Part shown: positions 10,572 to 43,245 of the stretch, one piece after another
Layout: the number at the start of each line of letters is the position of its first letter
Position numbering within the stretch: the first letter of the stretch is position 1
Sequence record: PZ445523.1
Direction: 5' to 3' (one strand)
Source: a phage
DNA: 64,000 bases
Notes under the pieces: model-generated
Seen by the model: the letters and a program-made list of their open reading frames with translations, nothing else
Databases searched by the model: none
What the model was told of the DNA's origin: nothing
Translations under genes and position numbers: made by a program

Positions 10572-10601
10572 ATAATACCACAGTTTGAACTTGTTGTAAA
10601 C
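10572..10601 (-). promoter_or_regulatory. Early promoter (T4 early consensus type)
   Basis: Minus strand reads GTTTAC, 18 nt ending TGG, then TATTAT. Confidence 0.6.
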
Positions 10602-10682
10602 AACTTTGTGAAAAATATTTTAGGGAATGACAAGAAGGGAACGATAGCTTAGAATGGTAATATACAGAATGCGAGAAAGAAA

Positions 10683-10695
10683 GGCCCAGAGGGCC
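10683..10695 (-). terminator. Short GC hairpin downstream of nrdH-like gene
   Basis: GGCCC-TCT-GGGCC. Confidence 0.4.
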
Positions 10696-10699
10696 CGTC

Positions 10700-11040
10700 T
10701 TAATCTTCTATGATATCTCTATCATATCCAAGTGAAATGAGAGTTTCTTTGAAGTGTTTAATGTTCTTTTGTCTAGAATCATTAATGAAAATGACTGGAT
10801 AACGAATGTTAAGAGATGTGAATCCAGCGCGTTTAGCAAGAGATACAATCAGTGGACGATCATACTCAATCTTACCGTTATTTGTAAGAACTTTATAGAA
10901 AGTAAAAGGAGCATTGAGCTCCTTTAGAAGTTTTGTAACTGATTGACATCCAGGACAACGACCTACTTCATCTGGAATTCCATAGACTTCAATCTTATTC
11001 TTTAAGTTCGAGTTTTGTTCCACGAGAAATAATTCCTTGG
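10700..11040 (-). CDS. nrdH: NrdH-like glutaredoxin
   Basis: KIEVYGIPDEVGRCPGCQSV redoxin motif with CxxC; true start is unclear (no in-frame ATG nearby, possibly GTG). Confidence 0.5.
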
Positions 11041-11306
11041 TAAGCCCAATAAGGAGGATTAACAGAATCATCACCAGAATTTTCTTCAGGGAAATAAACC
11101 TGGATAACGAAGCCGGATTCATCAAAGGTGAAATAAGTAGTAGGCAGTTCACCTAACAAATCGGCACGAGCGTTGATTTCTTCGAGGTCTTGTTCACGTC
11201 CAGCCCAGAAGCTTGGGTTCAGACTACATTCATAGAAATAATAGTCATTACCGAACATATCAAAACCATTCCAACTCTCTACTACATACCGCTCAAAACT
11301 AATCAT
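10995..11306 (-). CDS. Hypothetical protein
   Basis: 103-aa ORF. Confidence 0.4.
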   Translation of the reverse strand: MISFERYVVESWNGFDMFGNDYYFYECSLNPSFWAGREQDLEEINARADLLGELPTTYFTFDESGFVIQVYFPEENSGDDSVNPPYWAYQGIISRGTKLELKE

Positions 11307-11308
11307 AA

Positions 11309-11524
11309 TTAAGCCTTTTTATCAAGAACAGCATTCAGCTTGTTAGTAATTTTATCCAGACGCTCATTGAACTCACTAGAAGATAAGCCCTTTTCTGGAG
11401 AAATTAAACTAATAACGAAAAATACAACAATAAAAGGAATAAGAAAAATAGCTCCAACTGCCATAAACAGAAAGAATGTTACAGTTGTAAGAAAATCAGC
11501 TAAACCTTTACGAAATTTATACAT
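11309..11524 (-). CDS. Hypothetical small membrane protein
   Basis: 71 aa with one hydrophobic helix. Confidence 0.4.
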   Translation of the reverse strand: MYKFRKGLADFLTTVTFFLFMAVGAIFLIPFIVVFFVISLISPEKGLSSSEFNERLDKITNKLNAVLDKKA

Positions 11525-11639
11525 ATTTTACCCTTAATTGATTAACCAAGCATTAATAAGCACTAAACTATATTGCGAATAAAATTCTGGACCAAAATGA
11601 AAAATCATATCATTTATAGTATCCATAATGTAATTCAAT

Positions 11640-12110
11640 TTAATCATGTGTCCACCCCTCATCGGTATTTGACCAAAGTCGCTGATTATCTGATCCTCGC
11701 CACAGCTTTTTGGTAGGAAGATTTTTCTCATACTTCCCATCAATAATAACATCAACATATTTAAGCATTTCTAGTTGTTTAATATCTTCAAACTTATATC
11801 CTGTCCACAACCAAATGCTTTTATTGGGATAAAGATTTTTAATAGTTTGAACCACAGAGTGAATCACGTCTCTGTTATCAGGATAAAGAGGGTCTCCTCC
11901 AGTTATAGTTAATCCTTCTATATAATCATTATTCAAACATTCAATTAATTGCTCTAGTGTTTCACCAGTGAATGGAATGCCATTTCTAGCATTCCATGTT
12001 GATTTATTATAACACCCTTCACATTTATGCAAACAACCTGTAACGAAAAGAACGACCCTGCAACCAGGGCCATTCACAAAATCGCAAGGATAAAATCTAT
12101 CATAATTCAT
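11640..12110 (-). CDS. nrdG: Anaerobic ribonucleotide reductase activase (radical SAM)
   Basis: 156 aa; CDFVNGPGCR and CLHKCEGC cysteine motifs. Confidence 0.9.
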   Translation of the reverse strand: MNYDRFYPCDFVNGPGCRVVLFVTGCLHKCEGCYNKSTWNARNGIPFTGETLEQLIECLNNDYIEGLTITGGDPLYPDNRDVIHSVVQTIKNLYPNKSIWLWTGYKFEDIKQLEMLKYVDVIIDGKYEKNLPTKKLWRGSDNQRLWSNTDEGWTHD

Positions 12111-13924
12111 TGGTGTTTAACCCTATGCATGATTTCTTTATTTTTACCGAGATTAAATCCGCGTTCGTTCGGATTTCCCAAATAACCACATGTTCTTCTT
12201 ATTGTGTTCATCTTTTTAGGATCAGTTTCTCCACAAATAGAACAAACAAATCCGTTTTCAGTAGGAGTCATTTCATGGGTACTTCCGCATGTAAAACATT
12301 TATCTACCGGCATGTTAACACCAAAATAATCTAAATGTTGTGCAGCATAATCCCATACGGCCTCAAGACCTTTTAAGTTATTTTTCATATCAGGAAGTTC
12401 AACATAAGAAATGTGACCACCTGTCGCAATGAAATGATATGGTGCTTCGCGGGAAATCTTTTCAAACGGAGTAATATTTTCTTCTACTGAAACATGGAAA
12501 CTGTTAGTGTACCAGCCTTTATCGGTAACATCTTTTACGCTTCCATATTTTTCGGTATCGAGTTTACAGAAGCGATAACAAAGGTTTTCAGCAGGAGTCG
12601 AATATAAACTAAAAGCAAATCCGGTTCTTTCAGTCCACTGTTTAAGATGAGCATTCATTTTAGTTAAAATTTCTCGTCCAATATCACGACCGACAAGAAT
12701 ATTCAATTCGTGAATACCAATGTATCCTAAAGACACTGAACTTCTACCATTTTTAAATAACTCAATTATGTCGTCATCAGGTTTAAGACGAACCCCGAAT
12801 GCACCTTCTTGGTAAAGAATAGGAGCAACAGTTGCTTTAACTCCTTTTAAGGAACTAATTCTACACATCAAAGCTTCAAAACACAAATCCATTCGTTCAT
12901 TAAATAGCTCAACAAATTTCTGTTCATTGAACTGTGTTCCAATATAAGAATCTAACGCGATGCGAGGAAGATTCAGTGTTACAACACCAAGATTATTACG
13001 TCCATCAAGAATTTCATTGCCAGTCGAATCTTTCCATACGCTCAAGAAACTACGGCAACCCATTGGAGAAACAGGAACAGATGAACCAGTGATAGCTTTA
13101 TTGTTCTTAGCTGAAATAATATCAGGATACATCCTTTTGCTTGCACACTCTAGAGCAAGCTGTTTAATATCATAGTTCGGATCGTCTTTATAAAGATTAA
13201 CACCTTCTTCAACAAACATAACAAGCTTAGGGAAAATAGGAGTTATCCCATCACGACCAAGACCTTTAATACGATTTTTCAGAATTGCTTTCTGAATCAT
13301 TCGTTCAGTCCAGTCAGTTCCCGTACCAAATGTAATTGTTACAAAAGGCGTTTGTCCGTTTGAACTAAAGAGAGTATTTACTTCATATTCATAAGCTTGG
13401 AATGCATCGTATACGTCTTTTTCTGTTTTAGATTGAGCATAATTCAACGCATCGGCGATTTGCCATTTTTCTGCATCCTCAATGTGTTTTGCATAGGTGC
13501 GTTTAACATAAGGAGAAAGTACTTTATCTACATTCGCAAAAGTCGTTCCGCCGTATTGGTGAGAAGCAACCTGCGCAGTAATTTGTGCCATAATCGCAGT
13601 AGCAACGCCAATTGATTTAGGGGTTTCAATCTGCGCATTACCTAGCTTAAATCCGTTCTCAAGCATTCCTTTTAAATCTACTAAACAGCAATTAGTAAAT
13701 GGAAGAGCAGGGGAATAATCAATATCGTGGAAATGGATAATTCCGCTTTCATGTGCTTTCATAATAAAAGACGGGACCATATTTTTGGCAATGTGTTTAG
13801 ACACAATACCAGCCATAAGGTCCCGTTGAGTTGGAAAAACACGAGAATCTTTATTAGCATTCTCGTTTAAAAGGTCTTTATTAGTTTTATGAATCAATCC
13901 TTCAATTTCTTTTTCAATTGTCAT
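12107..13924 (-). CDS. nrdD: Anaerobic ribonucleoside-triphosphate reductase, uninterrupted
   Basis: 605 aa; C-terminal glycyl radical motif RRTCGYLG and CxxC zinc site; continuous ORF with no intron. Confidence 0.9.
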   Translation of the reverse strand: MTIEKEIEGLIHKTNKDLLNENANKDSRVFPTQRDLMAGIVSKHIAKNMVPSFIMKAHESGIIHFHDIDYSPALPFTNCCLVDLKGMLENGFKLGNAQIETPKSIGVATAIMAQITAQVASHQYGGTTFANVDKVLSPYVKRTYAKHIEDAEKWQIADALNYAQSKTEKDVYDAFQAYEYEVNTLFSSNGQTPFVTITFGTGTDWTERMIQKAILKNRIKGLGRDGITPIFPKLVMFVEEGVNLYKDDPNYDIKQLALECASKRMYPDIISAKNNKAITGSSVPVSPMGCRSFLSVWKDSTGNEILDGRNNLGVVTLNLPRIALDSYIGTQFNEQKFVELFNERMDLCFEALMCRISSLKGVKATVAPILYQEGAFGVRLKPDDDIIELFKNGRSSVSLGYIGIHELNILVGRDIGREILTKMNAHLKQWTERTGFAFSLYSTPAENLCYRFCKLDTEKYGSVKDVTDKGWYTNSFHVSVEENITPFEKISREAPYHFIATGGHISYVELPDMKNNLKGLEAVWDYAAQHLDYFGVNMPVDKCFTCGSTHEMTPTENGFVCSICGETDPKKMNTIRRTCGYLGNPNERGFNLGKNKEIMHRVKHQ

Positions 13925-14394
13925 TTTAAACTCTTTCTAAGCTGCTTCTTAAATGAAGCTATTAACTGTGTTTTGGTGTCAGATTCATTATATTCAAATC
14001 CTCTTTGAAGCATCTCGGCCATCATTTCCTCTTTTCCTAAACGAGAAAATTCCTTTGATTTATCTCCAACAAAGTTAGGGTGAATATTATTTTGGGTGTA
14101 ATCGGATTTTAAGTAAGTAAGTAAATTTTCTAACCATTCAAGATAATCAACACCTTGTCCCTTTAAGCCAGAACGATTAAATTTGTGCTTCATTTGACCT
14201 TCTGCAGCATTGCAAAGATTACAAAGCAATCCACGTACCTTTCCTGCTTTTGGTCCATTTAATTCATGGTCATGATCAAGATGATTAGCTTGAACATCAG
14301 GATTTAGTTCTCGTTGGCAAATTAAGCATTTACCGTTTTGTGCATCATAAAATTTCTGTTTTTCTTCTTTATATAATTTGCCAGTCAATAACAT
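13921..14394 (-). CDS. 49: Endonuclease VII (Holliday junction resolvase)
   Basis: 157 aa; CLIC...HLDHDHELNG...C zinc and catalytic motifs. Confidence 0.9.
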   Translation of the reverse strand: MLLTGKLYKEEKQKFYDAQNGKCLICQRELNPDVQANHLDHDHELNGPKAGKVRGLLCNLCNAAEGQMKHKFNRSGLKGQGVDYLEWLENLLTYLKSDYTQNNIHPNFVGDKSKEFSRLGKEEMMAEMLQRGFEYNESDTKTQLIASFKKQLRKSLK

Positions 14395-14435
14395 AATAAA
14401 CCCTTACCTTAAATAGATAAGGGTATTTATTATTT

Positions 14436-14918
14436 TCAAGTATTGTAAAACATTTGATGCAATCGCTTATATTGCCGAATCTTTTGGTCAGAAAAAGAAA
14501 TTTGAGTTTCAAGCCATTCAATGTACTCTGCGGCAGCTTGCATTAAATTTCCTTCATAACCATCGTTATTTTCTTGTGCAGCTAATTTAGCTAATGCGTA
14601 TGAAATACGTTCACCTTGAAAAGCGGATTCAGGCTTCTGAACATCTTGACTAGTTCGCTCTACGACTTCTTCAATTTCGCCATTTTCTACTGATTCAGTA
14701 TTCCATAAGCACCAATACGCAGTTGGCTTATCGTAGATGTTAATAATCTTTCCGTCGGAAAGTTCAATTTCAATAATTCCAGTATCAGGTTCTATATCAT
14801 CTTCACATTCTTTTGCAAGTTCACGAACTTTAAAGACAGTACCTGCACTAAGTTCCGGCCAGTAATTACATAGCTCTTTATCAGCACGATTAATTCTAAA
14901 CCACTTATCTACTGTAAT
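14436..14918 (-). CDS. Hypothetical protein (pin-like position)
   Basis: ORF between 49 and nrdC where T4 has pin; identity not verifiable from sequence alone. Confidence 0.4.
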   Translation of the reverse strand: MTVDKWFRINRADKELCNYWPELSAGTVFKVRELAKECEDDIEPDTGIIEIELSDGKIINIYDKPTAYWCLWNTESVENGEIEEVVERTSQDVQKPESAFQGERISYALAKLAAQENNDGYEGNLMQAAAEYIEWLETQISFSDQKIRQYKRLHQMFYNT

Positions 14919-15044
14919 CATGTCCCATCTCCATATCAATTAAGTCATTTATCGTTGGTTCATTATATACTGTTTCTTCATCAGTGTAAACCGGTTCTTC
15001 CGGCTCTGGCTCTACAGTTTCCCATCTAGCCGCCCACCAAGGTT

Positions 15045-15365
15045 TTATAGCGTAATCCATTCTCGTACTGTCTGAATTACTACACGTTCTCGAAGCTCAA
15101 CCAGTTCAACGGTAGGAACTGCATAATACCAGTCAGAATGGTAAGAACCTGAGCGAGATTCATTTACAGAAACATATACGTGGTGTTTTGGGCTAAAGTA
15201 AATTACTCGACGATATTGGCATTTGCCTTGTTGAGTCCATTCTTCGGATTCAATCTGAATAAGATAGTCGGAAAAATCGAAATCATAGTTTTCCGAAAAT
15301 GCATCATGGTCTTCGATGATTTCACTCAGAACTGCATCAACATCTAATTTATTTTCAATAGTCAT
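15045..15365 (-). CDS. Hypothetical protein
   Basis: 106-aa ORF. Confidence 0.4.
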   Translation of the reverse strand: MTIENKLDVDAVLSEIIEDHDAFSENYDFDFSDYLIQIESEEWTQQGKCQYRRVIYFSPKHHVYVSVNESRSGSYHSDWYYAVPTVELVELRERVVIQTVREWITL

Positions 15366-15376
15366 TTTTTCACCAA

Positions 15377-15586
15377 TTAATTTCGCAATTTATTAAGTTC
15401 TTCATAATCAATCCAGGATTCTAATCCTGATGGCAAATCAGATTCAATTTCCCAAAGAAGCTCTTCAATTTTCTGAAGACGATCTAGTTCTTCAGCTGGA
15501 ATAGTAACCATTGATGGAGTTCTTGATACACTAATATCGTAAATCATATTTACCCCAGTTTGACCATACAATCGCCGTATTTCCAC
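15377..15586 (-). CDS. Hypothetical protein
   Basis: 69-aa ORF. Confidence 0.35.
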   Translation of the reverse strand: MEIRRLYGQTGVNMIYDISVSRTPSMVTIPAEELDRLQKIEELLWEIESDLPSGLESWIDYEELNKLRN

Positions 15587-15765
15587 TTAGAAATAGACTT
15601 TTCACCATTAGAATAATAAACTTCGAGTTTAGCACGATTATTTTTAATTTGAATAACCTTGGCTGTCATCAAAGTTCCATACCCATAGTAAACTGCAACT
15701 TCATCACCTACATATACCGCGCTTCCGCGGTAATCATGGATATAATCAGTTCCTTCGAGAATCAT
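15550..15765 (-). CDS. Hypothetical protein
   Basis: 71-aa ORF. Confidence 0.35.
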   Translation of the reverse strand: MILEGTDYIHDYRGSAVYVGDEVAVYYGYGTLMTAKVIQIKNNRAKLEVYYSNGEKSISKWKYGDCMVKLG

Positions 15766-16025
15766 TTAAAGTATTCCCGCAATTGGTCAAATCCACCAAT
15801 ATGACTTCCATCAGGAGCAAATACCTGAGGCATTGTCAAGCCGATTTGAGTATCACGACCTAGTTTCGTTAGAAGCTCAGCAATTTTCTCATCATCAAAA
15901 ACACCTTTTTCCGGCATAATGTTGATAAATTCAAACGGCTGTTTCTTCACGGTCAAAAGACGTTTTGCATTATCGCAATACACGCATTTGTGGATGTTGC
16001 TATCATAACCATATACTTTAAACAT
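15762..16025 (-). CDS. nrdC: Phage glutaredoxin (thioredoxin)
   Basis: 87 aa with VYCDNAK active site; matches T4 NrdC as I recall it. Confidence 0.9.
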   Translation of the reverse strand: MFKVYGYDSNIHKCVYCDNAKRLLTVKKQPFEFINIMPEKGVFDDEKIAELLTKLGRDTQIGLTMPQVFAPDGSHIGGFDQLREYFK

Positions 16026-16026
16026 A

Positions 16027-16272
16027 TTATTCCTTAATTCCTAGTACTTGTTTGAAGGTCTCAGTATAATCGGAGTATTGACCGGTTTGTTCTTTATATT
16101 TGTTCATAATATCATAAACTTCTAAACGCATATTATTATACGAACGGGTTAAAGCGGATTTCAATACTGAATAACTATCCGGAAATTTACCATGTTCTTT
16201 ATAATAGGCCAGAGTTAATTCACGGACCGCTTTATCAGCAGTCTCAAGATATTCTTTACGCTTTGCCATTTT
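16027..16272 (-). CDS. Hypothetical protein
   Basis: Likely start [15 protein letters not shown]; the upstream part of the ORF-track frame is probably not coding. Confidence 0.4.
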
Positions 16273-18575: not shown

Positions 18576-18605
18576 ATTATACCACATCCTTGTGGCAAAG
18601 TAAAC
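18576..18605 (-). promoter_or_regulatory. Early promoter
   Basis: GTTTAC, 18 nt, TATAAT; upstream of paralog B. Confidence 0.65.
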
Positions 18606-20990: not shown

Positions 20991-21518
20991 TTATGCGAGT
21001 ACCGTCTTTAACCGTTCTTCAAACTTCCGAAGAGTATTCTGGCGTTCAGCTCTTTGCTTTTTGTAAGTTTCAATACGCTCTGAAATGAGAGTGTATCGTT
21101 CATTTACTGATTCTTTCATAAAATCAGGAATTTCACGAGAAGCTTTAATCTCGTCAAATTTATCAATAACAGCTTGCTCTTCAGCAATTAAGTTATCATA
21201 CATCAAAATATCTTTCTTGATGAACTCAATATCTTCTTGAGTTACACGAGATAACTTAGATGCTTTATCCTTTTTGTACTGTTCGTTAGTATCACGAGAC
21301 CAGTGTAATGTACGATTTTTATTCGTATTCTTGTAAATTTCTACAATACCAATCTCATCAATAATAACGATCCAATTCCAACGGGATTTGTAAATTTGTC
21401 CTCCATCAACAGTGATTTCACCTCCGATTGAGATGTCATTAAAGAACTTGCTTTGTGCTTCAGATTTAAATTTACCATCGTTGTAATTTACCAGGTTGAA
21501 AATATCTTTAGCGTTCAT
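20991..21518 (-). CDS. Hypothetical protein with C-terminal coiled coil
   Basis: Likely start MNAKDIF; upstream ORF-track extension is the translated promoter. Confidence 0.5.
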   Translation of the reverse strand: MNAKDIFNLVNYNDGKFKSEAQSKFFNDISIGGEITVDGGQIYKSRWNWIVIIDEIGIVEIYKNTNKNRTLHWSRDTNEQYKKDKASKLSRVTQEDIEFIKKDILMYDNLIAEEQAVIDKFDEIKASREIPDFMKESVNERYTLISERIETYKKQRAERQNTLRKFEERLKTVLA

Positions 21519-21546
21519 TTTGTGTTCCTCCGTAGTTGATAGTTGT

Positions 21547-21576
21547 ATAGTACCACAGAGGAACGGTCTTGTAAAC
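21547..21576 (-). promoter_or_regulatory. Early promoter
   Basis: GTTTAC, 18 nt, TACTAT. Confidence 0.6.
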
Positions 21577-21578
21577 AA

Positions 21579-21963: not shown

Positions 21964-22683
21964 TTATGATTCTTCTAAATGTCTTTTCTGAAAAGTTGAT
22001 ACCATACTACGATAAGGTTCATTTGGATACCCGTGTTTTATAGCTTCCTTTGTAAATTTTCTCCATCCGTATTTAGTTTCTTTCCAAAGCTCGAATAATT
22101 CATCTTCATACTGCCATATAGTTAAATGAGAACGCTTTGCAGCTTTAATTCCATTAATGTGCTTTTCTTTTACTGTAGGATTGCTTAGTGTCTTTTTAAT
22201 AATATTACTAACTTTTCTAACAAAAGCTGGGTCCTTATATCGTTGTGAAGTTTTTATTGAAGTGTTTAATTTAGCTTCCGGCGTGGATGTGACCTCTTTC
22301 ATCTTTTTCTTCATATGCTCTATATGATTAGGATTTTTCCATAAATTTATAGAATGCTTTTTACATTTTATCCTAGTTTCATCTGCAACCTTTCCTCCTT
22401 CACCCCCATATGACAGGTTAACGCAGTTTTTTCCATATTTCAATTTACCTGCCATGATATATAATATTTCGGCTTGTACCATTTTATCATAATTATCAAA
22501 AACTTCTAAAACCGTTTTTGATAATATATGGTCATTTGACACTTTTACACGTTCTATATAATTTCCACTACCAACATACGAATCATTGATGTTATTAGTT
22601 ATATGTCGACCATAATAGTATTTCTTAATACCTGTCTTTAAATTTAATATTTCAGTTTTATAGATAGTAAAATATTTTTTCAT
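21964..22683 (-). CDS. Seg-like GIY-YIG homing endonuclease
   Basis: N-terminus YYYGRHITNNINDSYVGSGNY and later NLSYGGEGG align with the SegB ORF in this window (KIYIGVHSTENLDDGYMGSG, NLKLGGEGG). Confidence 0.6.
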   Translation of the reverse strand: MKKYFTIYKTEILNLKTGIKKYYYGRHITNNINDSYVGSGNYIERVKVSNDHILSKTVLEVFDNYDKMVQAEILYIMAGKLKYGKNCVNLSYGGEGGKVADETRIKCKKHSINLWKNPNHIEHMKKKMKEVTSTPEAKLNTSIKTSQRYKDPAFVRKVSNIIKKTLSNPTVKEKHINGIKAAKRSHLTIWQYEDELFELWKETKYGWRKFTKEAIKHGYPNEPYRSMVSTFQKRHLEES

Positions 22684-23682: not shown

Positions 23683-23712
23683 ATAGTACCATAAAGCTTT
23701 ATGCTTGTAAAC
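23683..23712 (-). promoter_or_regulatory. Early promoter
   Basis: GTTTAC, 18 nt, TACTAT; upstream of the AAA+ ATPase gene. Confidence 0.6.
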
Positions 23713-23742: not shown

Positions 23743-23762
23743 GGGGAGCCCGAAGGCTCCCC
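23743..23762 (-). terminator. Intrinsic terminator after the nucleotidyltransferase gene
   Basis: GGGGAGCC-UUCG-GGCTCCCC followed by a T-run on the minus strand. Confidence 0.7.
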
Positions 23763-23763: not shown

Positions 23764-24777
23764 TCATTTATAATAACTTCGGTGGTTTTCAAGATAGACC
23801 TTCTCAAGGAAGTCATCCCAGAAACTCATGTCTACTTTTTGCTGCATACCGTTCTTAGAAGCTTCAGTAGATGCTGCTTCTACTTGATCGACCACATCTT
23901 CCAAAAACTCTTGAACCGTTTTAAATGGATGTTTACCCAACTTCACGTCGAGAATAAATGGAGCATCTTGGAGTGGATAAATCAAGTCGCCAGTTTTGTA
24001 AATTTCCAATAGTTGAAGTCCACCACGACAAGCATGGCTCAGAGCTTTCCAGTCAATACCTTCATTGGCTTCAGCCTTACGAGCACGTTCACCGTATTCA
24101 GCATCTAATTTGTTCAGTGACTGCTTAAGCTCAATAAGAGAAAGCGTTGTCTGATATTTACGACCCAACACAGTGTAGAACGTTTGTGGGCCTGTTTTCT
24201 CATGATTATGGAACACCCATTCACAGAATTCGTTTTCTGGAAGACGATGCTTAATATCTTCAACTTTAGTGCGACGCTGCTTAATAGAACCATCTTCTTG
24301 GTAATCAACCCATTGCTCAGGGATTTGATTAACTACTTTCAATACATCACGTAATGCAGCCAAACGAGAACCCTTGACACCGTATTTAGAAGCTTGCTTG
24401 CGGACATATCCTAAATATGATTTCATGTTAGTCGTATAAAAACGAGAACGGTTGTCTTGAATAAACTTCCACACATCAGGCAAATCAGATTTAACCACTA
24501 GTTCAGGTGGAGTGTGAAGCATATCTAATGCTACAGTTTCACCATCTGCTGCTAATTTAAAGAAATATTTAAGACTGTATAGTTCATGGTCAATATCATC
24601 TTTAGTGTTTTTAGATGATGTGTTGTTAGTGTTTTTACTCATATGCTCTTTAACATTTCCGATAAGAATATCGCGAGCAGGAGGAACAAAGATTTCTTTA
24701 AAATCTACATCAGATTCTGGGGTAGAAGTTCCATAAAGATGACTACCAAAATAGCTTTTCATTACTGTTTTCATCAT
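23764..24777 (-). CDS. Nucleotidyltransferase (Pol-beta / minimal NTase fold)
   Basis: N-terminal FGSHLYGTSTPESDVDF matches the GS-x(9-13)-DxD nucleotidyltransferase signature; 337 aa. Confidence 0.6.
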   Translation of the reverse strand: MMKTVMKSYFGSHLYGTSTPESDVDFKEIFVPPARDILIGNVKEHMSKNTNNTSSKNTKDDIDHELYSLKYFFKLAADGETVALDMLHTPPELVVKSDLPDVWKFIQDNRSRFYTTNMKSYLGYVRKQASKYGVKGSRLAALRDVLKVVNQIPEQWVDYQEDGSIKQRRTKVEDIKHRLPENEFCEWVFHNHEKTGPQTFYTVLGRKYQTTLSLIELKQSLNKLDAEYGERARKAEANEGIDWKALSHACRGGLQLLEIYKTGDLIYPLQDAPFILDVKLGKHPFKTVQEFLEDVVDQVEAASTEASKNGMQQKVDMSFWDDFLEKVYLENHRSYYK

Positions 24778-26495: not shown

Positions 26496-26627
26496 TACAT
26501 ACTCCTCTGAATCATATCAATAATGTTGTTCACCAGATTATAAGTAAACATTGGGTAATTATATTGAATCATCACATACACAACAAACAAAACTTTCATT
26601 CTCTTCTCCTTGGCAGTTGACAAGATT

Positions 26628-26657
26628 ACTATACCATAACCTTGCCAACTTGTAAAC
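26628..26657 (-). promoter_or_regulatory. Early promoter
   Basis: GTTTAC, 18 nt, TATAGT. Confidence 0.5.
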
Positions 26658-27419: not shown

Positions 27420-27449
27420 ATAGTACCACAGCTCAAACGGAAAGTAAAC
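27420..27449 (-). promoter_or_regulatory. Early promoter
   Basis: GTTTAC, 18 nt, TACTAT. Confidence 0.6.
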
Positions 27450-27464: not shown

Positions 27465-27482
27465 AGTCTCCCGAAGGAGACT
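27465..27482 (-). terminator. Intrinsic terminator
   Basis: AGTCTCC-UUCG-GGAGACT followed by TTTTTT. Confidence 0.65.
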
Positions 27483-31319: not shown

Positions 31320-31781
31320 TCATTGAGTTTTAATTACTGCTTTAGAAGCCTTTCCTGGTAAACGACGACTGTTGATAATTGCCATCCTACATTGAAGTGA
31401 CGGGTCTTTGAACTTCTCGTTAGGTTTACAAACTGTAAATCCAAGCCAAAGATTTCCATCTGTGATTTCTAAACGTCCAGGACGATATTCAACCCCATCA
31501 ATAAAATCCTCATCAATGTCAGGACGCGGAGGCATACTCAGGAATTCATTAACTTCTAAAACATGGTCTTTTATTTTATGGAATAATTCAAAAACGTATG
31601 TCTCATCAATCTCCCGTTGAATTGCACGATCAAGAAGATGCTGAGAATATTTTAGATGAAACGATGAGACCCCTGCTGCTTTTGATGCCTCACGAATCTC
31701 ATTGTTAATTTGACGAAACTCCGACTCAAAGTGACGACGAAGCTTATTTCGACGGATAAAAACTTCAGTGTTGATAGTCAT
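31320..31781 (-). CDS. regB: Sequence-specific endoribonuclease RegB
   Basis: 153 aa, own early promoter, conserved position relative to tk/denV/e; assignment by length and synteny. Confidence 0.55.
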   Translation of the reverse strand: MTINTEVFIRRNKLRRHFESEFRQINNEIREASKAAGVSSFHLKYSQHLLDRAIQREIDETYVFELFHKIKDHVLEVNEFLSMPPRPDIDEDFIDGVEYRPGRLEITDGNLWLGFTVCKPNEKFKDPSLQCRMAIINSRRLPGKASKAVIKTQ

Positions 31782-31808
31782 GTTATTCTCCTCTTAACTG
31801 ATAGGAAA

Positions 31809-31838
31809 ATTATACCACAGCCAAGAGGAAAAGTAAAC
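31809..31838 (-). promoter_or_regulatory. Early promoter upstream of regB
   Basis: GTTTAC, 18 nt, TATAAT. Confidence 0.65.
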
Positions 31839-34481: not shown

Positions 34482-34898
34482 TTAAATGTAAATATTTTTA
34501 CCGTAATACTTGTACCAATGTGGTTTCATTAAAATTTTTTCATCAAGTCGTTGTTGACTCAATTTAATAGCTGATTTGCATGGATTATAATCATTTTTCC
34601 ATTCTACTGGAATATCGCTGATGTCAGGAACTTCAGTATCTTTTATACTGAACCCGCGTTTTAAGCATTCCGTTATAATGTCTGATTGACGCTTTCGCAA
34701 AAATTCTAACTTATCGTAAAAGAAAGTAACATGACCAGAACCTAAAATAAACTCGGAAGATATTTTAAAATCTTTAACCCGCTTACCATTTGCCACATGT
34801 TTACGAACTATACCAAAAACACGCGGCAATTCACGGTATTCTGCGATTAAATGTTGATCAGCAAGTTCAGATACTAAAGTCAAATTAATACGAGTCAT
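34482..34898 (-). CDS. denV: Endonuclease V (pyrimidine dimer DNA glycosylase)
   Basis: 138 aa; [17 protein letters not shown]...WYKYYGK, near-identical to T4 endo V as I recall it. Confidence 0.9.
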
Positions 34899-34923
34899 TT
34901 TATCCCTCCAAGTAACTGTGAAT

Positions 34924-34953
34924 ATACTATCACAATTCTAGGAGAAAGTAAAC
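34924..34953 (-). promoter_or_regulatory. Early promoter upstream of denV
   Basis: GTTTAC, 18 nt, TAGTAT. Confidence 0.6.
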
Positions 34954-37753: not shown

Positions 37754-38347
37754 TTATTTCAGAGAATTAATGTATTCCTGAACATCGGCAGAGGTAGTTT
37801 CAACCCCAGAAATATTACCGTTAAAGGTTTCAACTCGAGCAAGAGTATCTTCAATATCAACCTTAGTCAGTGCTGCAATTTCAACTACATCATCAGCAGT
37901 ACTAATTCCAAGGGCATTCGCGGCGCGAGTTTCACGGATATATTCCAATTTAATTGCAAGTTCTTGGCGAGCATCATCTAGCTCAACTACTTTCTTGGCG
38001 ATTTCAATTCGCATTTCAGCATAACCATCAGCTTTAGTAGTCAACTGCTCAGCTGTTCGACGATATAGTAAACCGAGTTTAGCATGCATTGTTACATCTT
38101 GACCTTCGGAAAGAAGCTTGCGAATTTCACGCTCTTTTGATTCGGCCTGCTTATTCTTTTCGACAATAAGTTCACGAATACGCTTTTCTTCATTAATAGA
38201 TTTAACGGAAGCAGTTTTTAGATCTTTAATCTTATCAAGTAGTTTTGCTGCTGCAGCAGTATACTGTTCTTCAACAGATAGATTTTTAGCCATAGCAGAA
38301 CCAAGTTTAGTGCGAATAAACTCAACAATTTTCTTCAGTGTGTTCAT
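37754..38347 (-). CDS. Long coiled-coil protein, tentatively PspA/IM30-like
   Basis: 197 aa, almost entirely helical and charged with an N-terminal amphipathic segment; family assignment is tentative. Confidence 0.4.
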
Positions 38348-38403
38348 AGTATTTCCTTAGGTTGGTATAATTAGATAATATCACGTTTTAATAGATTGTA
38401 AAC

Positions 38404-38739
38404 TTATTCTTCGTCTAGCTCATCGATAAAGACGTCGATGGCCTCGATAACGGCATCATTGATAGCCAATAAAGTAAAATCATCGTCAGTGCCTTTAGAA
38501 GATTCTAAAGCATTGATATATGCTTGGTTAGCAAGTTCCCAAGCCTTTTTAAAATAAGGAGCTTCATCATCAGGACAAATATCCCGCACGCCTTCAAAGA
38601 TACGTTTGGCATAATCTAACACCCATTGTACAGGCATGTTTTGAGAACGTTCGTTAAACTCTTTAAATTCCTTAGATTCAAAAAGCTCTTCAGGATAATA
38701 ATTTCGATTACAAAAAGCTTTACTAAAGTTACGTTTCAT
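38404..38739 (-). CDS. Hypothetical protein
   Basis: 111-aa ORF. Confidence 0.4.
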   Translation of the reverse strand: MKRNFSKAFCNRNYYPEELFESKEFKEFNERSQNMPVQWVLDYAKRIFEGVRDICPDDEAPYFKKAWELANQAYINALESSKGTDDDFTLLAINDAVIEAIDVFIDELDEE

Positions 38740-38794
38740 AATGTTCTCCTCAAATTATGGGCTCATAATATCTCAATCATGAGCCTATGTAAAC

Positions 38795-39058
38795 TTATTT
38801 CATATTATTGAAATATTCTTCTGCGATTTCGTCGTTATCATGGTAAACTTTAGAAGACAGTTTAACATAACCTTCTGCCGTGAACATGTTAATCACAACC
38901 TTTACAGTATACCACTGACCATCTTCATTACCCATTACTGCGTAAGTTTCAAACATCGGATGATCAGGACCGATAACTTTAATATCATTCACTGTACGAC
39001 CGAAATCTTCTGAAACACATTTCATAAAGAAGTTGAACAGTTCGCCGTAATTATCCAT
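38795..39058 (-). CDS. Hypothetical protein
   Basis: Likely start MDNYGELF; upstream ORF-track extension is the translated promoter. Confidence 0.45.
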   Translation of the reverse strand: MDNYGELFNFFMKCVSEDFGRTVNDIKVIGPDHPMFETYAVMGNEDGQWYTVKVVINMFTAEGYVKLSSKVYHDNDEIAEEYFNNMK

Positions 39059-39101
39059 TTCATTCTCCAAGTTGTTTTCTGTATCAGTAGTTGATAGTTG
39101 T

Positions 39102-39131
39102 ATAGTACCATGGAAGGACAAGGATGTAAAC
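39102..39131 (-). promoter_or_regulatory. Early promoter
   Basis: GTTTAC, 18 nt, TACTAT. Confidence 0.6.
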
Positions 39132-39265
39132 AGTTTTGTGAAAAAATTTTTAAAAAGTTTTAGGGAATTCTAGGGTCAGGAGGGGCAATTAAAAGGTAGG
39201 ATAATATATTATAAAGGGTATAAACTAAATGATGCCTAGAGAGGCCCGGAAAGGCCTAGATACCA

Positions 39266-39292
39266 AAAAGCCCCAACCTTTCGGTCGGGGCT
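39266..39292 (-). terminator. Intrinsic terminator, copy 1 of a duplicated element
   Basis: 10-bp stem AGCCCCGACC / GGTTGGGGCT with GAAA loop and U-tract; identical to 39801-39827. Confidence 0.7.
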
Positions 39293-39299
39293 AAGAATG

Positions 39300-39761
39300 T
39301 TATTTGATTTGTTTAGCAGACCAAATGCGGTCTTTAATAATTTTTTGGATGTCTTCAACATACTCTAGGTCATGAGCATGTGGATTATCTTTGAAACTAT
39401 GAGCTCGCGCAAGTTTCTGGCCTTCGGTCTTAATTATCAAAAGTTCTTTAAGAATTGCTTCATATCTAGAGATAATTCCTTTAGCAATATTTTTTTCTTG
39501 TGCTGCTTTAGGGTCAGCCTTAGGAGCAGGTTTACCAGAAGGTTTTTCGAAAGCCGCACCAGTAGCAACCAGGCTTTTCCAGGCGGTGGTAACATAGTTA
39601 CCCACAAAGCCTTCAGCTCTCATATCGTCATAGAACTTGTACCGAGATTCGTCAGAAGCATCTTTATAAGAATATTTACCAGCTTTAATAGCAGCAGTTG
39701 CTACAGCGCGAACATCTGAAGCGGATGCTTCGGTCATTAAAAATTGAGCATAAGTTTTCAT
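39300..39761 (-). CDS. Internal-protein-like head protein with capsid targeting sequence
   Basis: N-terminus MKTYAQFLMTEA; late promoter TATAAATA 25 nt upstream; flanked by identical terminator hairpins. Confidence 0.6.
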   Translation of the reverse strand: MKTYAQFLMTEASASDVRAVATAAIKAGKYSYKDASDESRYKFYDDMRAEGFVGNYVTTAWKSLVATGAAFEKPSGKPAPKADPKAAQEKNIAKGIISRYEAILKELLIIKTEGQKLARAHSFKDNPHAHDLEYVEDIQKIIKDRIWSAKQIK

Positions 39762-39789
39762 TGTTATTTCCTGTGTTAATTAACTCATC

Positions 39790-39797
39790 TATTTATA
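39790..39797 (-). promoter_or_regulatory. Late promoter upstream of ip-like gene
   Basis: Minus-strand TATAAATA about 25 nt upstream of the start at 39761. Confidence 0.55.
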
Positions 39798-39800
39798 TCA

Positions 39801-39827
39801 AAAAGCCCCAACCTTTCGGTCGGGGCT
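39801..39827 (-). terminator. Intrinsic terminator, copy 2 of a duplicated element
   Basis: Same 27-nt hairpin as 39266-39292. Confidence 0.7.
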
Positions 39828-39831
39828 AAGC

Positions 39832-40141
39832 CTTGCGGCAACCTTGTCGGGGTTCCACCTGCTAAGGCAAGTGTTTGTACGAAACGCCGGGATTCGAACC
39901 CGGTTATTAAGCAGTTGACGCTACTCAATATTTTTAAAAGGCCATATCTCGACCATATCCGAACGTTCCGTCAAAAACGCTACTCGACTTACGGCAAAGA
40001 TATTTCCTCGAATCGATAATTCGGTGCGCCGTTTCTGCTGTGATGTAAGAGGGCATCAATAAACGCAAAGATTATTAACGCAATTCCTTACTCAGGGAAC
40101 ATCAGTCCGACGACTTACCGGTAGCGACCCGGCTTCTTGTC
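39832..40141 (-). ncRNA. Small stable RNA region (T4 species 1/2, rnaC/rnaD-like) with tRNA-like element
   Basis: No ORF; perfect T-arm-like CCGGGTTCGAATCCCGG on the minus strand (plus 39887-39905); lies between tRNA-Arg and a strong terminator. Confidence 0.45.
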
Positions 40142-40218
40142 TGGTCGAGGCAGAAGGATTCTAACCTTCAACCAACGGATTAGAAATCCGTTGCTCTATA
40201 CAATTGAGCTATGCCCCG
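40142..40218 (-). tRNA. tRNA-Arg, anticodon UCU
   Basis: Hand-folded cloverleaf: acceptor CGGGGCA/TGCCTCG, anticodon loop TTTCTAA, T-loop TTAGAAT, encoded CCA. Confidence 0.7.
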
Positions 40219-40221
40219 TAA

Positions 40222-40887
40222 TTAAAATTTCATTTTTCGACCTTTAAACCATCCTTCTGGAATTGGGTCAGTTTTCTTAATACGTTTAGAAACTTTTTCA
40301 TCTAATGAATGAATCCACATCATACCAAATTGGGAATTCTTTTCACCTTTCTGGTGATTATTTTTAGCGTGAATTTCTTTCATTTTATTAATAGTTTCAA
40401 GAGTATGATGCTTATTTAAAAATCTGCTATTATTTAAAAATTTTTCTTTGTATTCAGGAGTTGACCATAAACGTTTAAATACATTTGAACCATTTTTACG
40501 ATATTTTTCTTGAAGTAAAATATCATTTTCAAAACGTGACTTAAACGATTTAGCTCCTTTTAAGCTAGCATCTTTCTTCTGGTTTAGCATTCCAGGAATA
40601 TTTACATGATCCCATCCGCCTTCACCGCCAAGTTTTAAATTATACACATCTGGTCTATTTAAAAACTCTTCTGTGACAATATTTTTCTCGGCTTCAAGCA
40701 TAGATTCTTTATCATCAAAATACTCTAATATTTCTTTAGAAAAATTTTCTATACCATATTTATCTTGGGCTCTTTTTAATAATTTACCAGAACCCATATA
40801 TCCATCATCTAAATTTTCGGTAGAATGCACACCAATATAAATTTTATTATTAATTTTATTTGTTATTTTATAAGTGTAATAGAACAT
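40222..40887 (-). CDS. segB: GIY-YIG homing endonuclease SegB
   Basis: 221 aa; YKITNKINNKIYIGVHS...GSG GIY-YIG module; sits inside the tRNA cluster as in T4. Confidence 0.8.
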   Translation of the reverse strand: MFYYTYKITNKINNKIYIGVHSTENLDDGYMGSGKLLKRAQDKYGIENFSKEILEYFDDKESMLEAEKNIVTEEFLNRPDVYNLKLGGEGGWDHVNIPGMLNQKKDASLKGAKSFKSRFENDILLQEKYRKNGSNVFKRLWSTPEYKEKFLNNSRFLNKHHTLETINKMKEIHAKNNHQKGEKNSQFGMMWIHSLDEKVSKRIKKTDPIPEGWFKGRKMKF

Positions 40888-40928
40888 AAATATCTCCTAT
40901 TTCTAAGAGTATTTATGTTCTCAAAATA

Positions 40929-41002
40929 TGACCCAGACCAGATTTGAACTGGTAACCTTTCCCTTATGAGGGGACTGCTGCTAACCATTGAGCTACAGGG
41001 CC
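40929..41002 (-). tRNA. tRNA-Ile, anticodon CAU
   Basis: Anticodon loop CTCATAA, T-loop TTCAAAT; D-stem and one acceptor pair imperfect by eye; no encoded CCA. Confidence 0.55.
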
Positions 41003-41003
41003 T

Positions 41004-41079
41004 TGGTGCTGATTGACGGAATCGAACCGCCGACCTTCTCATTACAAGTGAGTTGCTCTACCTACTGAGCTAAATCAGC
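41004..41079 (-). tRNA. tRNA-Thr, anticodon UGU
   Basis: Acceptor GCTGATT/AATCAGC, D-arm GCTCAGTAGGTAGAGC, anticodon loop CTTGTAA, T-loop TTCGATT, encoded CCA. Confidence 0.75.
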
Positions 41080-41081
41080 AA

Positions 41082-41168
41082 CGGAGGCGATAGGATTTGA
41101 ACCTATGAGTCGCCGGAGCGACTGCCGGTTTTCAAGACCGGTGCATTAAACCACTCTGCCACGCCTCC
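41082..41168 (-). tRNA. tRNA-Ser, anticodon UGA
   Basis: Acceptor GGAGGCG/CGCCTCC, anticodon loop CTTGAAA, long variable arm, T-loop TTCAAAT. Confidence 0.75.
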
Positions 41169-41170
41169 AG

Positions 41171-41244
41171 TCTCCGTGGCAGGATTTGAACCTACGACAT
41201 TCTGCTCCCAAAGCAGACGCTCTACCAAACTGAGCTACACGGAG
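41171..41244 (-). tRNA. tRNA-Pro, anticodon UGG
   Basis: Acceptor CTCCGTG/CACGGAG, D-arm GCTCAGTTTGGTAGAGC, anticodon loop TTTGGGA. Confidence 0.75.
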
Positions 41245-41254
41245 TAAATTAAAT

Positions 41255-41328
<74 letters not shown>

Positions 41329-41333
41329 AAATT

Positions 41334-41420
41334 TGGTACGAGAAGTGGGACTCGAACCCACAAGGAAATCATTCCGCAGCATTTTAAGTGCTGTGCCTTT
41401 ACCAATTTGGCCATTCTCGC
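41334..41420 (-). tRNA. tRNA-Leu, anticodon UAA
   Basis: Acceptor GCGAGAA/TTCTCGT, anticodon loop CTTAAAA, long variable arm, encoded CCA. Confidence 0.75.
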
Positions 41421-41421
41421 G

Positions 41422-41494
41422 CTGGGAATAAAGGACTCGAACCTTTGCATCTAGCAGTCAAAGTGCTATGCCTTACCAACTTGGCTAATTCCCA
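41422..41494 (-). tRNA. tRNA-Gln, anticodon UUG
   Basis: Acceptor TGGGAAT/ATTCCCA, anticodon stem TAGCA/TGCTA with loop CTTTGAC, T-loop TTCGAGT. Confidence 0.75.
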
Positions 41495-41591
41495 ATTATT
41501 AACAAAGGCTCTCAAACAAGAACCCTTGATGATAGAGGGTATTAATCAGTGCGGTATGAGTTAATAATAACAAATAATTCTTAAAGCATAT

Positions 41592-41879
41592 TTACCATTT
41601 ATGATAATACGTATTTACGATACATTCAAGACCCAAAGGATTCTTGAAAATATCATATTCAAGAGGACCTTTTTCTGTTTCAATAAAGAAATCAAAATTT
41701 ACTGTATTAAATTTACGGTCTTCCTTCACTAATTTAACTTGAGAAGATGAACGGTCAATGTAAACCTTTTCAACTTCAAAACATGTTAAAATTCCATAAT
41801 CATCAATCAAGGCTTTAGCAGCGTCTTGATCATATTTATATCCATTTTCAATGGACGATACTTTCGCATAAAGAATCAT
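41592..41879 (-). CDS. Hypothetical protein
   Basis: 95-aa ORF. Confidence 0.4.
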   Translation of the reverse strand: MILYAKVSSIENGYKYDQDAAKALIDDYGILTCFEVEKVYIDRSSSQVKLVKEDRKFNTVNFDFFIETEKGPLEYDIFKNPLGLECIVNTYYHKW

Positions 41880-41881
41880 TA

Positions 41882-42292
41882 TCAGCCTCTATCAACGATA
41901 GTATGAGTATGGGCATTTACGATTTGCCACCAGTCGAAACGATTGGAACCATAATCTGGTTTATTTTCATTTTCTTTAATGATATCACGCAGTTTATCTT
42001 CTGTTTCAGCATACGCAATTAAATCATCATATCCACCACAAGGATAATAATTATCACCTGCGAATAAAAGAAAATTTACCTTAGATGGATTTACGTAATA
42101 ATGGTCTTTAGGATATTTAGTTCCTCTCCAATCAGTTACTTCAACATAACGATAAGAAAATCCATTTTTACTTTCAATCCAACTCCACGCTTCAAAAGGA
42201 GTATTAAAAACTTTATCAGGTATTAAATTACCTTCAAAATGAGAAGGATTTGCATAATCCCCGGCATAAACATAATATTCGTTAATACTCAT
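41882..42292 (-). CDS. Hypothetical protein
   Basis: 136-aa ORF, aromatic-rich. Confidence 0.45.
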   Translation of the reverse strand: MSINEYYVYAGDYANPSHFEGNLIPDKVFNTPFEAWSWIESKNGFSYRYVEVTDWRGTKYPKDHYYVNPSKVNFLLFAGDNYYPCGGYDDLIAYAETEDKLRDIIKENENKPDYGSNRFDWWQIVNAHTHTIVDRG

Positions 42293-42478
42293 TTATTCAC
42301 CTTTAGAAATTTTATCCATAACGATAGCGATTAAACCAATTAAAAATGCTACTACAAGTGAAAACACATTTTCTGCTGTAGTCAGTAATCCGCATATAAA
42401 TCCAACAAACATTGAAAAACTAAAAGCGGAAGCAGAAATTGCAATAGCAACATTTCGAATTAATTCACAGCGTTTCAT
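42293..42478 (-). CDS. Small membrane protein
   Basis: 61 aa, two hydrophobic helices; own early promoter. Confidence 0.4.
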   Translation of the reverse strand: MKRCELIRNVAIAISASAFSFSMFVGFICGLLTTAENVFSLVVAFLIGLIAIVMDKISKGE

Positions 42479-42506
42479 TTTATTCTCCTCAGTAGTTGAT
42501 AGGGTA

Positions 42507-42536
42507 ATAATATCACCACCCTATCTAAAAGTAAAC
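42507..42536 (-). promoter_or_regulatory. Early promoter
   Basis: GTTTAC, 18 nt, TATTAT; spacer is palindromic. Confidence 0.6.
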
Positions 42537-42546
42537 GGTTTATAAA

Positions 42547-42855
42547 CTATTTTATTCCGCGTGATGCAATTGTGTTCTGTCGTTTAACGCCAGTTTGTTT
42601 AAAGTCATGATTGTCGATTTGATCGGTACGAGCAACTCCGAATGATGATTTGATCTTAGCTTTAGATCCTTTAGTTATAGAAATAAACATCTCGGAAGCC
42701 CCTTTCTTAAAGTCCGAGGCGATTACTTCAACGCCGTTCTTAGCAAGTGACTTCAGAATTGCCTCCGCATACTCATCGTCAAGACTCGCCTGAGTATTAA
42801 TAACGAATGTCTTTGGTGCAGCAGCTTCATTGATAAATTCTTTAAATGTTTTCAT
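42547..42855 (-). CDS. Internal-protein-like protein with capsid targeting sequence (ipI-like position)
   Basis: N-terminus MKTFKEFINEAAA; adjacent to 57B as ipI is in T4. Confidence 0.6.
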   Translation of the reverse strand: MKTFKEFINEAAAPKTFVINTQASLDDEYAEAILKSLAKNGVEVIASDFKKGASEMFISITKGSKAKIKSSFGVARTDQIDNHDFKQTGVKRQNTIASRGIK

Positions 42856-42885
42856 TTTATTTTCCTAATTAATTTTGATAGGGTA

Positions 42886-42915
42886 ATAGTATCACTACTA
42901 AAACCCTGTGTAAAC
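42886..42915 (-). promoter_or_regulatory. Early promoter of ipI-like gene
   Basis: GTTTAC, 18 nt, TACTAT. Confidence 0.6.
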
Positions 42916-42927
42916 AACTTTGTGAAA

Positions 42928-43185
42928 TTATTTTAAATCTTCTAATCGTTTCTTCATCTTAGAACCGTTCTTAGCGATTTCGCCTGCATCAGAGCATAAT
43001 GCTAAAAGCGCTTTAACTTTAGTTTGGTCTCCTTTAAAAGATGAAGGATCAACAGCAGCAGCAAGTTCTTTAATACGAGAGAAAAGACGCTCAGCTTCAG
43101 CTAAAGCCATTCCAAGCTTTACTTCCATACCATGAGAAGATTCAGTAATAGTAGTTTTTGTAGCAAACTCTTTGAAAGTTTTCAT
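42928..43185 (-). CDS. Internal-protein-like protein with capsid targeting sequence
   Basis: N-terminus MKTFKEFATKT; promoter and leader are near-duplicates of those of the neighbour. Confidence 0.55.
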   Translation of the reverse strand: MKTFKEFATKTTITESSHGMEVKLGMALAEAERLFSRIKELAAAVDPSSFKGDQTKVKALLALCSDAGEIAKNGSKMKKRLEDLK

Positions 43186-43215
43186 TTTATTTTCCTAATT
43201 AATTTTGATGAGGTA

Positions 43216-43245
43216 ATAGTATCACTACCTCATCAGTATGTAAAC
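43216..43245 (-). promoter_or_regulatory. Early promoter of second ip-like gene
   Basis: GTTTAC, 18 nt, TACTAT; near-duplicate of the promoter at 42886-42915. Confidence 0.6.

Follow-up and report, generated by a model that had tools for sequence, protein, structure and literature searches.

Original descriptions of the early promoters (Pe) of phage T4 are reportedly those of Liebig and Rüger (1989), of Wilkens and Rüger, and of Miller (2003). The Pe class and the regB promoter are active immediately after infection through the Escherichia coli sigma-70 holoenzyme and require no phage protein synthesis (PMC2988021, PMC3014915). T4 early promoters have GTTTAC at -36 to -31, preceded by a region rich in A at -40 to -44 (Nolan 2006, PMC1524935), conform to the T4/PST consensus TTTACW-N17-TAYWAT (Comeau 2014, PMC4122927) and combine UP, -35, TGn and -10 elements in an architecture with which they outcompete host promoters (Hinton 2010, PMC2988021); some of them are stimulated by Alt-mediated ADP-ribosylation of Arg265 in the alpha subunit of RNA polymerase (PMC2988021). 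In T4-like phages, early promoters are also known as parts of promoter-early stem-loop (PeSL) cassettes (Arbiol 2010, PMC2839356; Comeau 2014, PMC4122927). Here we analyse a family of 14 minus-strand sites of this type in a 64,000-nucleotide (nt) stretch of phage DNA (PZ445523.1, hereafter the window, at its full length). The sites are very probably sigma-70-dependent early promoters of a T4-like Tequatrovirus phage, as judged from the DNA sequence: the consensus, the placement and the presence of the T4 motif at orthologous positions point to the known T4 early-promoter class in a close T4 relative. The promoter finding is thus already known, since consensus, location and cassette behaviour have all been published, and it holds nothing new on T4 early transcription.

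The exact pattern GTTTAC-N18-TA[CT][AT]AT occurs 13 times in the window, always on the minus strand, against 0.05 occurrences expected by chance (~260-fold enrichment), and as many as 13 were reached in none of 100 shuffles. Chance was rejected as the source of the motif. When one mismatch is allowed, 22 matches are found versus 2.45 expected. We also built a weight matrix from 11 clear sites and scanned both strands and shuffled sequence, a check proposed in a preliminary description of the window; it returned 13 sites on the minus strand with scores of 21-61 bits, and scores stayed at or below 8 bits on the plus strand and at or below 6 bits in the shuffles. The matrix scan adds two sites, 26628-26657 (-10 hexamer TATAGT) and 34924-34953 (TAGTAT), and a scan with relaxed spacing adds a third, 38375-38403, where the gap is 17 nt compared with 18 nt in the T4 ortholog. 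With these three sites, all absent from the preliminary description, the family-like sites number 14, two intragenic bare matches being counted separately. GTTTAC is present at 14 of 14 sites, the -10 hexamers are TACTAT, TATAAT, TATTAT, TATAGT and TAGTAT, and the extended -10 element TGn (TGG or TGA) is found in all sites except 38794, which has AGA (sites are named by their higher coordinate). A scan for generic sigma-70 promoters yields no excess of matches (74 versus 82 expected; 71 versus 70); the signal therefore belongs specifically to the T4-type pattern. In this generic scan the family sites are read as TTTAC(A/T) separated from the -10 hexamer by a 17-bp spacer.

The preliminary description had listed twelve minus-strand sites with GTTTAC, a fixed 18-nt spacer ending in TG(G/A) and TA(T/C)(A/T)AT, a pattern identical to the published T4/PST consensus. 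Exactly 12 of the 13 exact matches do lie within 10572-43245, the thirteenth being 10127-10156, but the spacer ends as described in only 10 of the 12, with AGA at 38765-38794 and GTA at 14962-14991. The 18-nt spacing holds for 13 of the 14 family sites but not for 38375-38403. Moreover, the 18 nt correspond to the canonical, optimal 17-bp sigma-70 spacer, because they were counted from the conserved G at -36; in these terms the spacer is 17 bp in 13 of 14 sites and 16 bp at 38403. The longer shared blocks around several sites were confirmed, the block CAAAGTTGTTTAC being present at four sites and a close variant at a fifth. In Mosigvirus and Dhakavirus, GTTTAC is followed in many early promoters by a gap of 17 nt (a 16-bp spacer), and the -35 element has the variants GTGTAC, ATTTAC and ATGTAC, so the ‘fixed 18’ is a property of T4-type phages; the conserved leader also differs in these genera (AGACCTATCAAC).

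All 14 family sites are intergenic, on the minus strand and in the same orientation as the genes that they precede. The stop codon of the preceding gene is never more than a few bases away from the start of the site, and in three cases it abuts or overlaps GTTTAC; downstream, a Shine-Dalgarno sequence of the GGAG or GAGG type and an ATG come 25-43 nt after each site. Over the 24 nt that precede the sites, A+T content is high (mean 0.76 versus 0.65 in the background, p<5e-5), an A tract or T tract of four nt or longer is found upstream of 10 of the 14, and an upstream block, CACAAAGTTGTTTAC, is common to four sites, with a close variant at a fifth. The predicted anatomy reads, from 5' to 3', as an A/T-rich UP-like region, a -35 element GTTTAC(A/T) in which TTTACW aligns with TTGACA, a 17-bp spacer ending in the extended -10 TGn, a -10 element TAYWAT, a conserved initial transcribed sequence beginning ACAACTATCAAC... 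and, finally, a strong Shine-Dalgarno sequence and ATG. The same architecture stands before orthologous genes in a Mosigvirus and a Dhakavirus, despite diverged flanks.

From the highest coordinate downwards, the first predicted promoter is 43216-43245 (-35 GTTTAC at 43245-43240, TGA, -10 TACTAT at 43221-43216), located before an internal-head-protein gene (ATG 43185) at the position of the T4 ipI promoter. It is followed by 42886-42915, a promoter without T4 counterpart that stands before a second internal-head-protein gene (ATG 42855) and is part of a 109-nt direct repeat shared with the 43245 block, and by 42507-42536, before the trna.4 ortholog (ATG 42478), upstream of the transfer RNA (tRNA) cluster. 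Three sites precede e-series orthologs, namely, 39102-39131 before e.8 (true ATG 39058), 38765-38794 before e.7 (ATG 38739) and the shorter-spaced 38375-38403 before e.6 (ATG 38347). The site 34924-34953 is homologous to the T4 ipIII promoter and here lies before denV (ATG 34898), whereas 31809-31838 belongs to regB (ATG 31781) and its spacer pairs with the regB Shine-Dalgarno region. Further along are 27420-27449 before the mobD.5 ortholog (ATG 27391), 26628-26657 before the mobD.2 ortholog (ATG 26599), 23683-23712 before the nrdC.10 ortholog (true ATG 23648), 21547-21576 before the nrdC.8 ortholog (true ATG 21518) and 18576-18605 before the nrdC.4 ortholog (ATG 18547), where the nrdC.5 stop codon overlaps the G of GTTTAC. 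The last is 10572-10601, before the 55.6 ortholog (ATG 10541). The two bare -35/-10 matches, both minus-strand GTTTAC-N18-TATAAT, are 14962-14991, inside the 49.1 coding sequence and 40 nt before the pin ATG, and 10127-10156, which lies within the 55.5 coding sequence, 61 nt from the downstream 55.4 ATG. The region upstream of the former is not AT-rich (A+T 0.38) and that of the latter is (0.71). Their hexamers are kept in the Mosigvirus orthologs, and those of 14991 also in Dhakavirus, with diverged spacers; the two could be internal promoters for pin and 55.4, although coding constraint may also account for the matches.

By its sequence, the window is a genome segment of a Tequatrovirus, i.e. 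a T4-like coliphage, and shares collinearity and 95-98% identity with T4, T6 and RB14. A 6-kb slice of it is matched by 761 phage records, with T6, RB14, RB32 and their relatives at 97-98% identity over nearly the full length, and from ~30.5 kb onwards T4 and the window are collinear, at identities of 93-99%. At 13 of the 14 sites the same motif is found at the collinear T4 position, where the genes that follow are 55.6, nrdC.4, nrdC.8, nrdC.10, mobD.2, mobD.5, regB, ipIII, e.6, e.7, e.8, trna.4 and ipI. The early-promoter family put forward in the preliminary description is thus borne out by the match to the published T4 consensus, by orthologous T4 positions and by co-oriented placement just upstream of genes. 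If so, the unmodified E. coli RNA polymerase holoenzyme would recognise the sites as soon as the cell is infected, independently of any phage protein, the injected Alt ADP-ribosyltransferase would, to judge from the T4 literature, boost some of them further, and in the non-essential early region single genes or small groups of genes would have transcription starting at their head. Several points weigh against this assignment. We infer promoter activity in this phage from sequence and T4 orthology, and regB is the sole site tied to an experimentally mapped T4 promoter (PMC3014915), the T4 GenBank record carrying no promoter features and the literature having yielded no usable genome-wide mapping of T4 transcription starts. 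Furthermore, the 14991 and 10156 pattern matches are intragenic and lack TGn, TGn is also missing at 38794, and the spacer is shorter at 38403.

It could be argued that the sites are MotA/AsiA-dependent middle promoters, or a mixture of early and middle promoters. Indeed, roughly one in two middle promoters likewise has TGn and a -10 hexamer (PMC2988021), and one of the one-mismatch matches, 44694-44723 on the minus strand, has a MotA box TGCTT (GTTTAATGCTTCAG...TATAAT) and a predicted start that falls exactly on T4 75393, the start site of the known middle promoter P1. The MotA box and the P1 start position imply that 44694-44723 itself is not an early promoter. Among the family sites, however, TGCTT at about -30 is found in 0 of 14, and all of them retain a sigma-70-type -35 element. 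Moreover, a comparison by hand of the early-type sites, at their T4 positions, with the start sites in Hinton's middle-promoter table gave no coincidence. A middle-promoter origin is therefore very improbable, and we retain the early-promoter assignment.

The promoter DNA also accounts for a peptide that might be mistaken for a protein motif. In a mechanically produced list of open reading frames (ORFs), the ORF starting at 21578 is translated as LFTRPFLCGTIQLSTTEEHK-M, that at 23816 as ...GTIQLSTDTDLENK-M / ...FFTKLFTSIKLYGTIQLSTDTDLENK-M and that at 39121 as LSFHGTIQLSTTDTENNLENE-M. The preliminary description had read the shared extension as GTIQLSTT(E/D) on three unrelated proteins; an in-frame promoter and leader are indeed present in all three, but the peptide of 23816 reads STD rather than STT(E/D). 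The stretch GTIQLST corresponds to GGT ACT ATA CAA CTA TCA AC, that is, to an in-frame reading of TGG, the hexamer TACTAT and the conserved leader. Being in frame with three ORFs, the peptide might be taken for a real conserved N-terminal sequence, e.g. a signal or targeting sequence. However, the TTG ‘starts’ of the extensions lie in the -35 element (21578) and inside the promoter spacer (39121), and the ATG at 23816 is located upstream of a terminator and the promoter; an ATG with a strong Shine-Dalgarno sequence is found downstream of each extension; and the curated T4 starts of nrdC.8 (53885), nrdC.10 (55320) and e.8 (70623) are these downstream ATGs, excluding GTIQLSTT. At other promoters the corresponding DNA is out of frame or without any start codon. 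A genuine peptide motif thus has almost nothing to recommend it, and translations and curated T4 starts agree with the earlier proposal that the extensions are translated promoter DNA and that the true starts are the downstream methionines. Further mechanical ORFs with an in-frame promoter and leader extension start at 27436 (GTIQPS...), 26623 and 18598 (minus strand). ORF callers should accordingly start nrdC.8, nrdC.10, e.8, mobD.5, mobD.2 and nrdC.4 at the downstream ATGs. More generally, promoter DNA can mimic a conserved N-terminal protein motif.

According to the preliminary description, the promoters partition the accessory region into short early operons. The points of initiation are indeed 0.3-4.4 kb apart, but an upstream intrinsic terminator is found at only 4 of the 14 promoters, so overlapping, nested read-through transcripts are more likely than discrete operons. 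The predicted terminators, the first three on the minus strand, are 23743-23762 (GGGGAGCCTTCGGGCTCCCC and then a run of T), which immediately precedes the 23712 promoter; 27465-27482, directly upstream of the 27449 promoter; 39269-39292, ~140 nt upstream of the 39131 promoter; and a terminator-like hairpin at 10682-10696, upstream of the 10601 promoter. The 39269-39292 terminator is contained in one copy of a 36-nt direct repeat (39260-39295 and 39795-39830, 97% identity) that flanks a 535-bp segment missing in T4; the segment encodes an ORF of 153 amino acids (39300-39761, phrog_2280) of unknown function.

At many sites the -35/-10 spacer has its complement in the 5' leader of the same promoter, at positions +1 to +11 in some and at the Shine-Dalgarno sequence in others, and the resulting hairpin would be present in read-through transcripts only. 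Segments with such predicted hairpins, all on the minus strand, are 43183-43245, 42476-42536, 38737-38794, 34896-34953, 31779-31838, 26597-26657 and 21516-21576. At 43245 the pairing is GATGAGGTA / TACCTCATC, at 42536 it is GATAGGGT / ACCCTATC, and 26657 has a 15-bp stem. The Shine-Dalgarno sequence is covered at 21576 (GTTCCTCTG / CGGAGGAAC) and at regB (TTTTCCTCTT / AAGAGGAGAA). Compared with dinucleotide shuffles, 7 of the 14 promoter-to-ATG segments fold at z <= -3.2.

Each spacer was then paired with its own leader and with the leaders of the other promoters, and the assignment was permuted, in four genomes from three genera. Cognate pairs are more stable than non-cognate ones in the window (-11.4 versus -7.5 kcal/mol, permutation p 2e-5), T4 (-11.7 versus -7.0 kcal/mol, p <2e-5), Mosigvirus (-10.2 versus -7.8 kcal/mol, p 0.001) and Dhakavirus (-11.2 versus -8.1 kcal/mol, p <2e-5). 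For regB, 39 loci from IMG/VR were collected, representing 16 distinct promoter types. In this set cognate pairing averages -17.0 versus -11.0 kcal/mol for non-cognate pairing (p<1e-5), a comparison that requires no alignment, and a helix of 10-18 bp ending 2-6 nt before the ATG is found in 14 of the 16 types. MAFFT followed by RNAalifold predicted no structure for the regB promoter-leader sequences, because the hairpin arms are mis-registered in the alignment. In a pseudo-alignment anchored by position only (14 nt after the -35 element and 16 nt around GGAG), 11 of 14 pairs of the regB helix have changed on both sides, and the covariation score is 0.337, versus 0.172 in shuffles (0 of 500 reached the observed value) and 0.08-0.17 in slid registers. 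The cognate excess in four genomes and the regB covariation show that the spacer-leader pairing is under selection.

The level at which selection acts is less clear-cut in the data. Between the window and T4, the 5' arm at 26657 differs by two A-to-G changes, both of which lead to G·U wobble pairs, and this hints at a structure at the level of the sense-strand RNA. Sense over antisense folding is slightly favoured in the window and T4, whereas the two are about equal in Mosigvirus and Dhakavirus. Promoters with an upstream terminator show a weak trend toward lacking the spanning hairpin (-8.3 versus -11.5 kcal/mol, one-sided p = 0.09), in a comparison whose detector missed terminators more than 75 nt upstream. 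We tentatively suggest, while regarding it as rather unlikely, that many early promoters of T4-like phages are built into an RNA hairpin, the 5' arm of which would be the spacer, untranscribed from the promoter itself, and the 3' arm the promoter's own leader, often including the Shine-Dalgarno sequence. Transcripts from the own promoter would then have a free ribosome-binding site, and in read-through transcripts the site would be masked, or protected from RegB cleavage at GGAG. The translational consequence, which we infer, would be that regB, denV, nrdC.8 and other such genes are translated only while their own early promoter fires, providing a simple cis-encoded tie between the translation of a gene and the activity window of its promoter.

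Some of the repeats may reflect recombination. A 109-nt block at 42835-42943 is repeated at 43165-43273 (minus strand, 88% identity, 330 bp apart) and comprises promoter, leader and first codons; phrog_2667 and phrog_3499, two distinct internal-head-protein genes, are each headed by one copy. Since only one gene is present at this locus in T4, the repeat looks like the insertion or replacement of a promoter cassette. Likewise, the denV promoter of the window (34902-34953) is the ortholog of the T4 ipIII promoter and precedes denV because ipIII and ipII are absent; the ipIII/denV join is located in the leader, just before the denV Shine-Dalgarno sequence. The denV promoter of T4 itself (T4 65413) has a different sequence, with an 11-bp helix between spacer and Shine-Dalgarno sequence. 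Both the 109-nt repeat and the denV fusion fit the model of modular shuffling by PeSLs (Arbiol 2010, Comeau 2014). In composition, too, the sites resemble PeSLs, with 7 of 14 promoter-to-ATG segments folding stably, four upstream terminators and an excess of cognate pairing. Many of the promoters very probably form PeSL cassettes, made up of a promoter and an upstream terminator or promoter-spanning hairpin, and the shared promoter sequence could also serve as a recombination point for gene swapping.

Taken further, these data could mean that the repeats are mainly mobile or recombinogenic PeSL cassettes for gene shuffling and that promoter activity is secondary. The mechanism is described (PMC2839356, PMC4122927), the 109-nt repeat flanks an extra internal-protein gene that T4 lacks, and the fusion of the T4 ipIII promoter to denV coincides exactly with the absence of ipIII and ipII. 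However, 11 of the 14 promoters occupy conserved orthologous positions. Window/T4 indels are clearly associated with promoters in two places, the internal-protein locus (42516-43151) and the e/denV junction (34902-34909), and only 2-3 of ~13 breakpoints are at promoters at all; collinearity with T4 breaks mainly where T4 has homing-endonuclease or intron DNA absent from the window (mobB, mobC, I-TevII, mobD), and at internal-protein loci. Shuffling as the main role is conceivable but less likely than not. It is, moreover, compatible with promoter function, because PeSLs by definition contain early promoters, and we continue to regard the sites as early promoters first.

A few other features of the window are of note. 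Its GC content is ~35%, and the GC skew changes sign near 46 kb, where minus-strand early/middle genes give way to plus-strand late genes. Between nrdC.9 and nrdC.10, a segment of ~735 bp without T4 counterpart contains a 239-amino-acid ORF (21964-22683, minus strand). Where 20000-26000 matches the records of T6, RB32 and RB33, the features listed there include an endonuclease of homing or intron-like type, which may or may not be this ORF.

Compared with the Pe of T4, the predicted promoters have the same GTTTAC at -36 to -31, 17-bp spacer, TGn, TAtAAT-like -10 element and A-rich upstream region, and lie likewise 5' of early genes; the differences are one additional internal-protein gene with an extra promoter copy in front of it, a promoter moved to denV and one spacer 1 nt shorter, none of them substantive. 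Strong E. coli-type sigma-70 promoters with UP and extended -10 elements, among which T7 A1 and lambda PL have been named as comparable (PMC2988021), share with these sites the holoenzyme, the positions of the elements and the optimal 17-bp spacing. Unlike them, the sites described here have TTTACA instead of TTGACA as the -35 element, a conserved G at -36 and a conserved initial transcribed sequence; according to the literature, some T4 early promoters further differ from the E. coli type in responding to ADP-ribosylation by Alt. The correspondence with PeSLs extends to the order of AT-rich region, early promoter, stem-loop and Shine-Dalgarno/ATG, to the consensus TTTACW-N17-TAYWAT, to indels at the internal-protein locus and to a stem-loop that either lies upstream, as a terminator, or overlaps the spacer and -10 hexamer. 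In phages RB49 and phi1, the PeSL stem-loops are mostly located between -35 and -10 or overlap the -10 element, and they were read as terminators or attenuators (Arbiol 2010, PMC2839356). By contrast, no U tract accompanies the promoter-spanning hairpins in the window, and in many of them the spacer pairs with the Shine-Dalgarno sequence. The stem-loop itself is part of the published cassettes, and masking of the Shine-Dalgarno sequence in read-through transcripts may be undescribed: no statement of such masking by early-promoter hairpins was found in the literature searched, which excluded key older T4 literature. Lacking U tracts and often including the Shine-Dalgarno sequence, the hairpins resemble those that sequester the ribosome-binding sites of T4 e, soc, 49 and I-TevI, which contain late promoters and delay translation until late in infection (PMC3014915). 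The arrangement is the same in that the promoter lies within the hairpin, the 3' arm covers the Shine-Dalgarno sequence, and transcripts from the own promoter lack the 5' arm that read-through transcripts contain in full. The embedded promoters of e, soc, 49 and I-TevI, however, are late, whereas those in the window are predicted to be early, and by analogy translation would here be confined to the early period.

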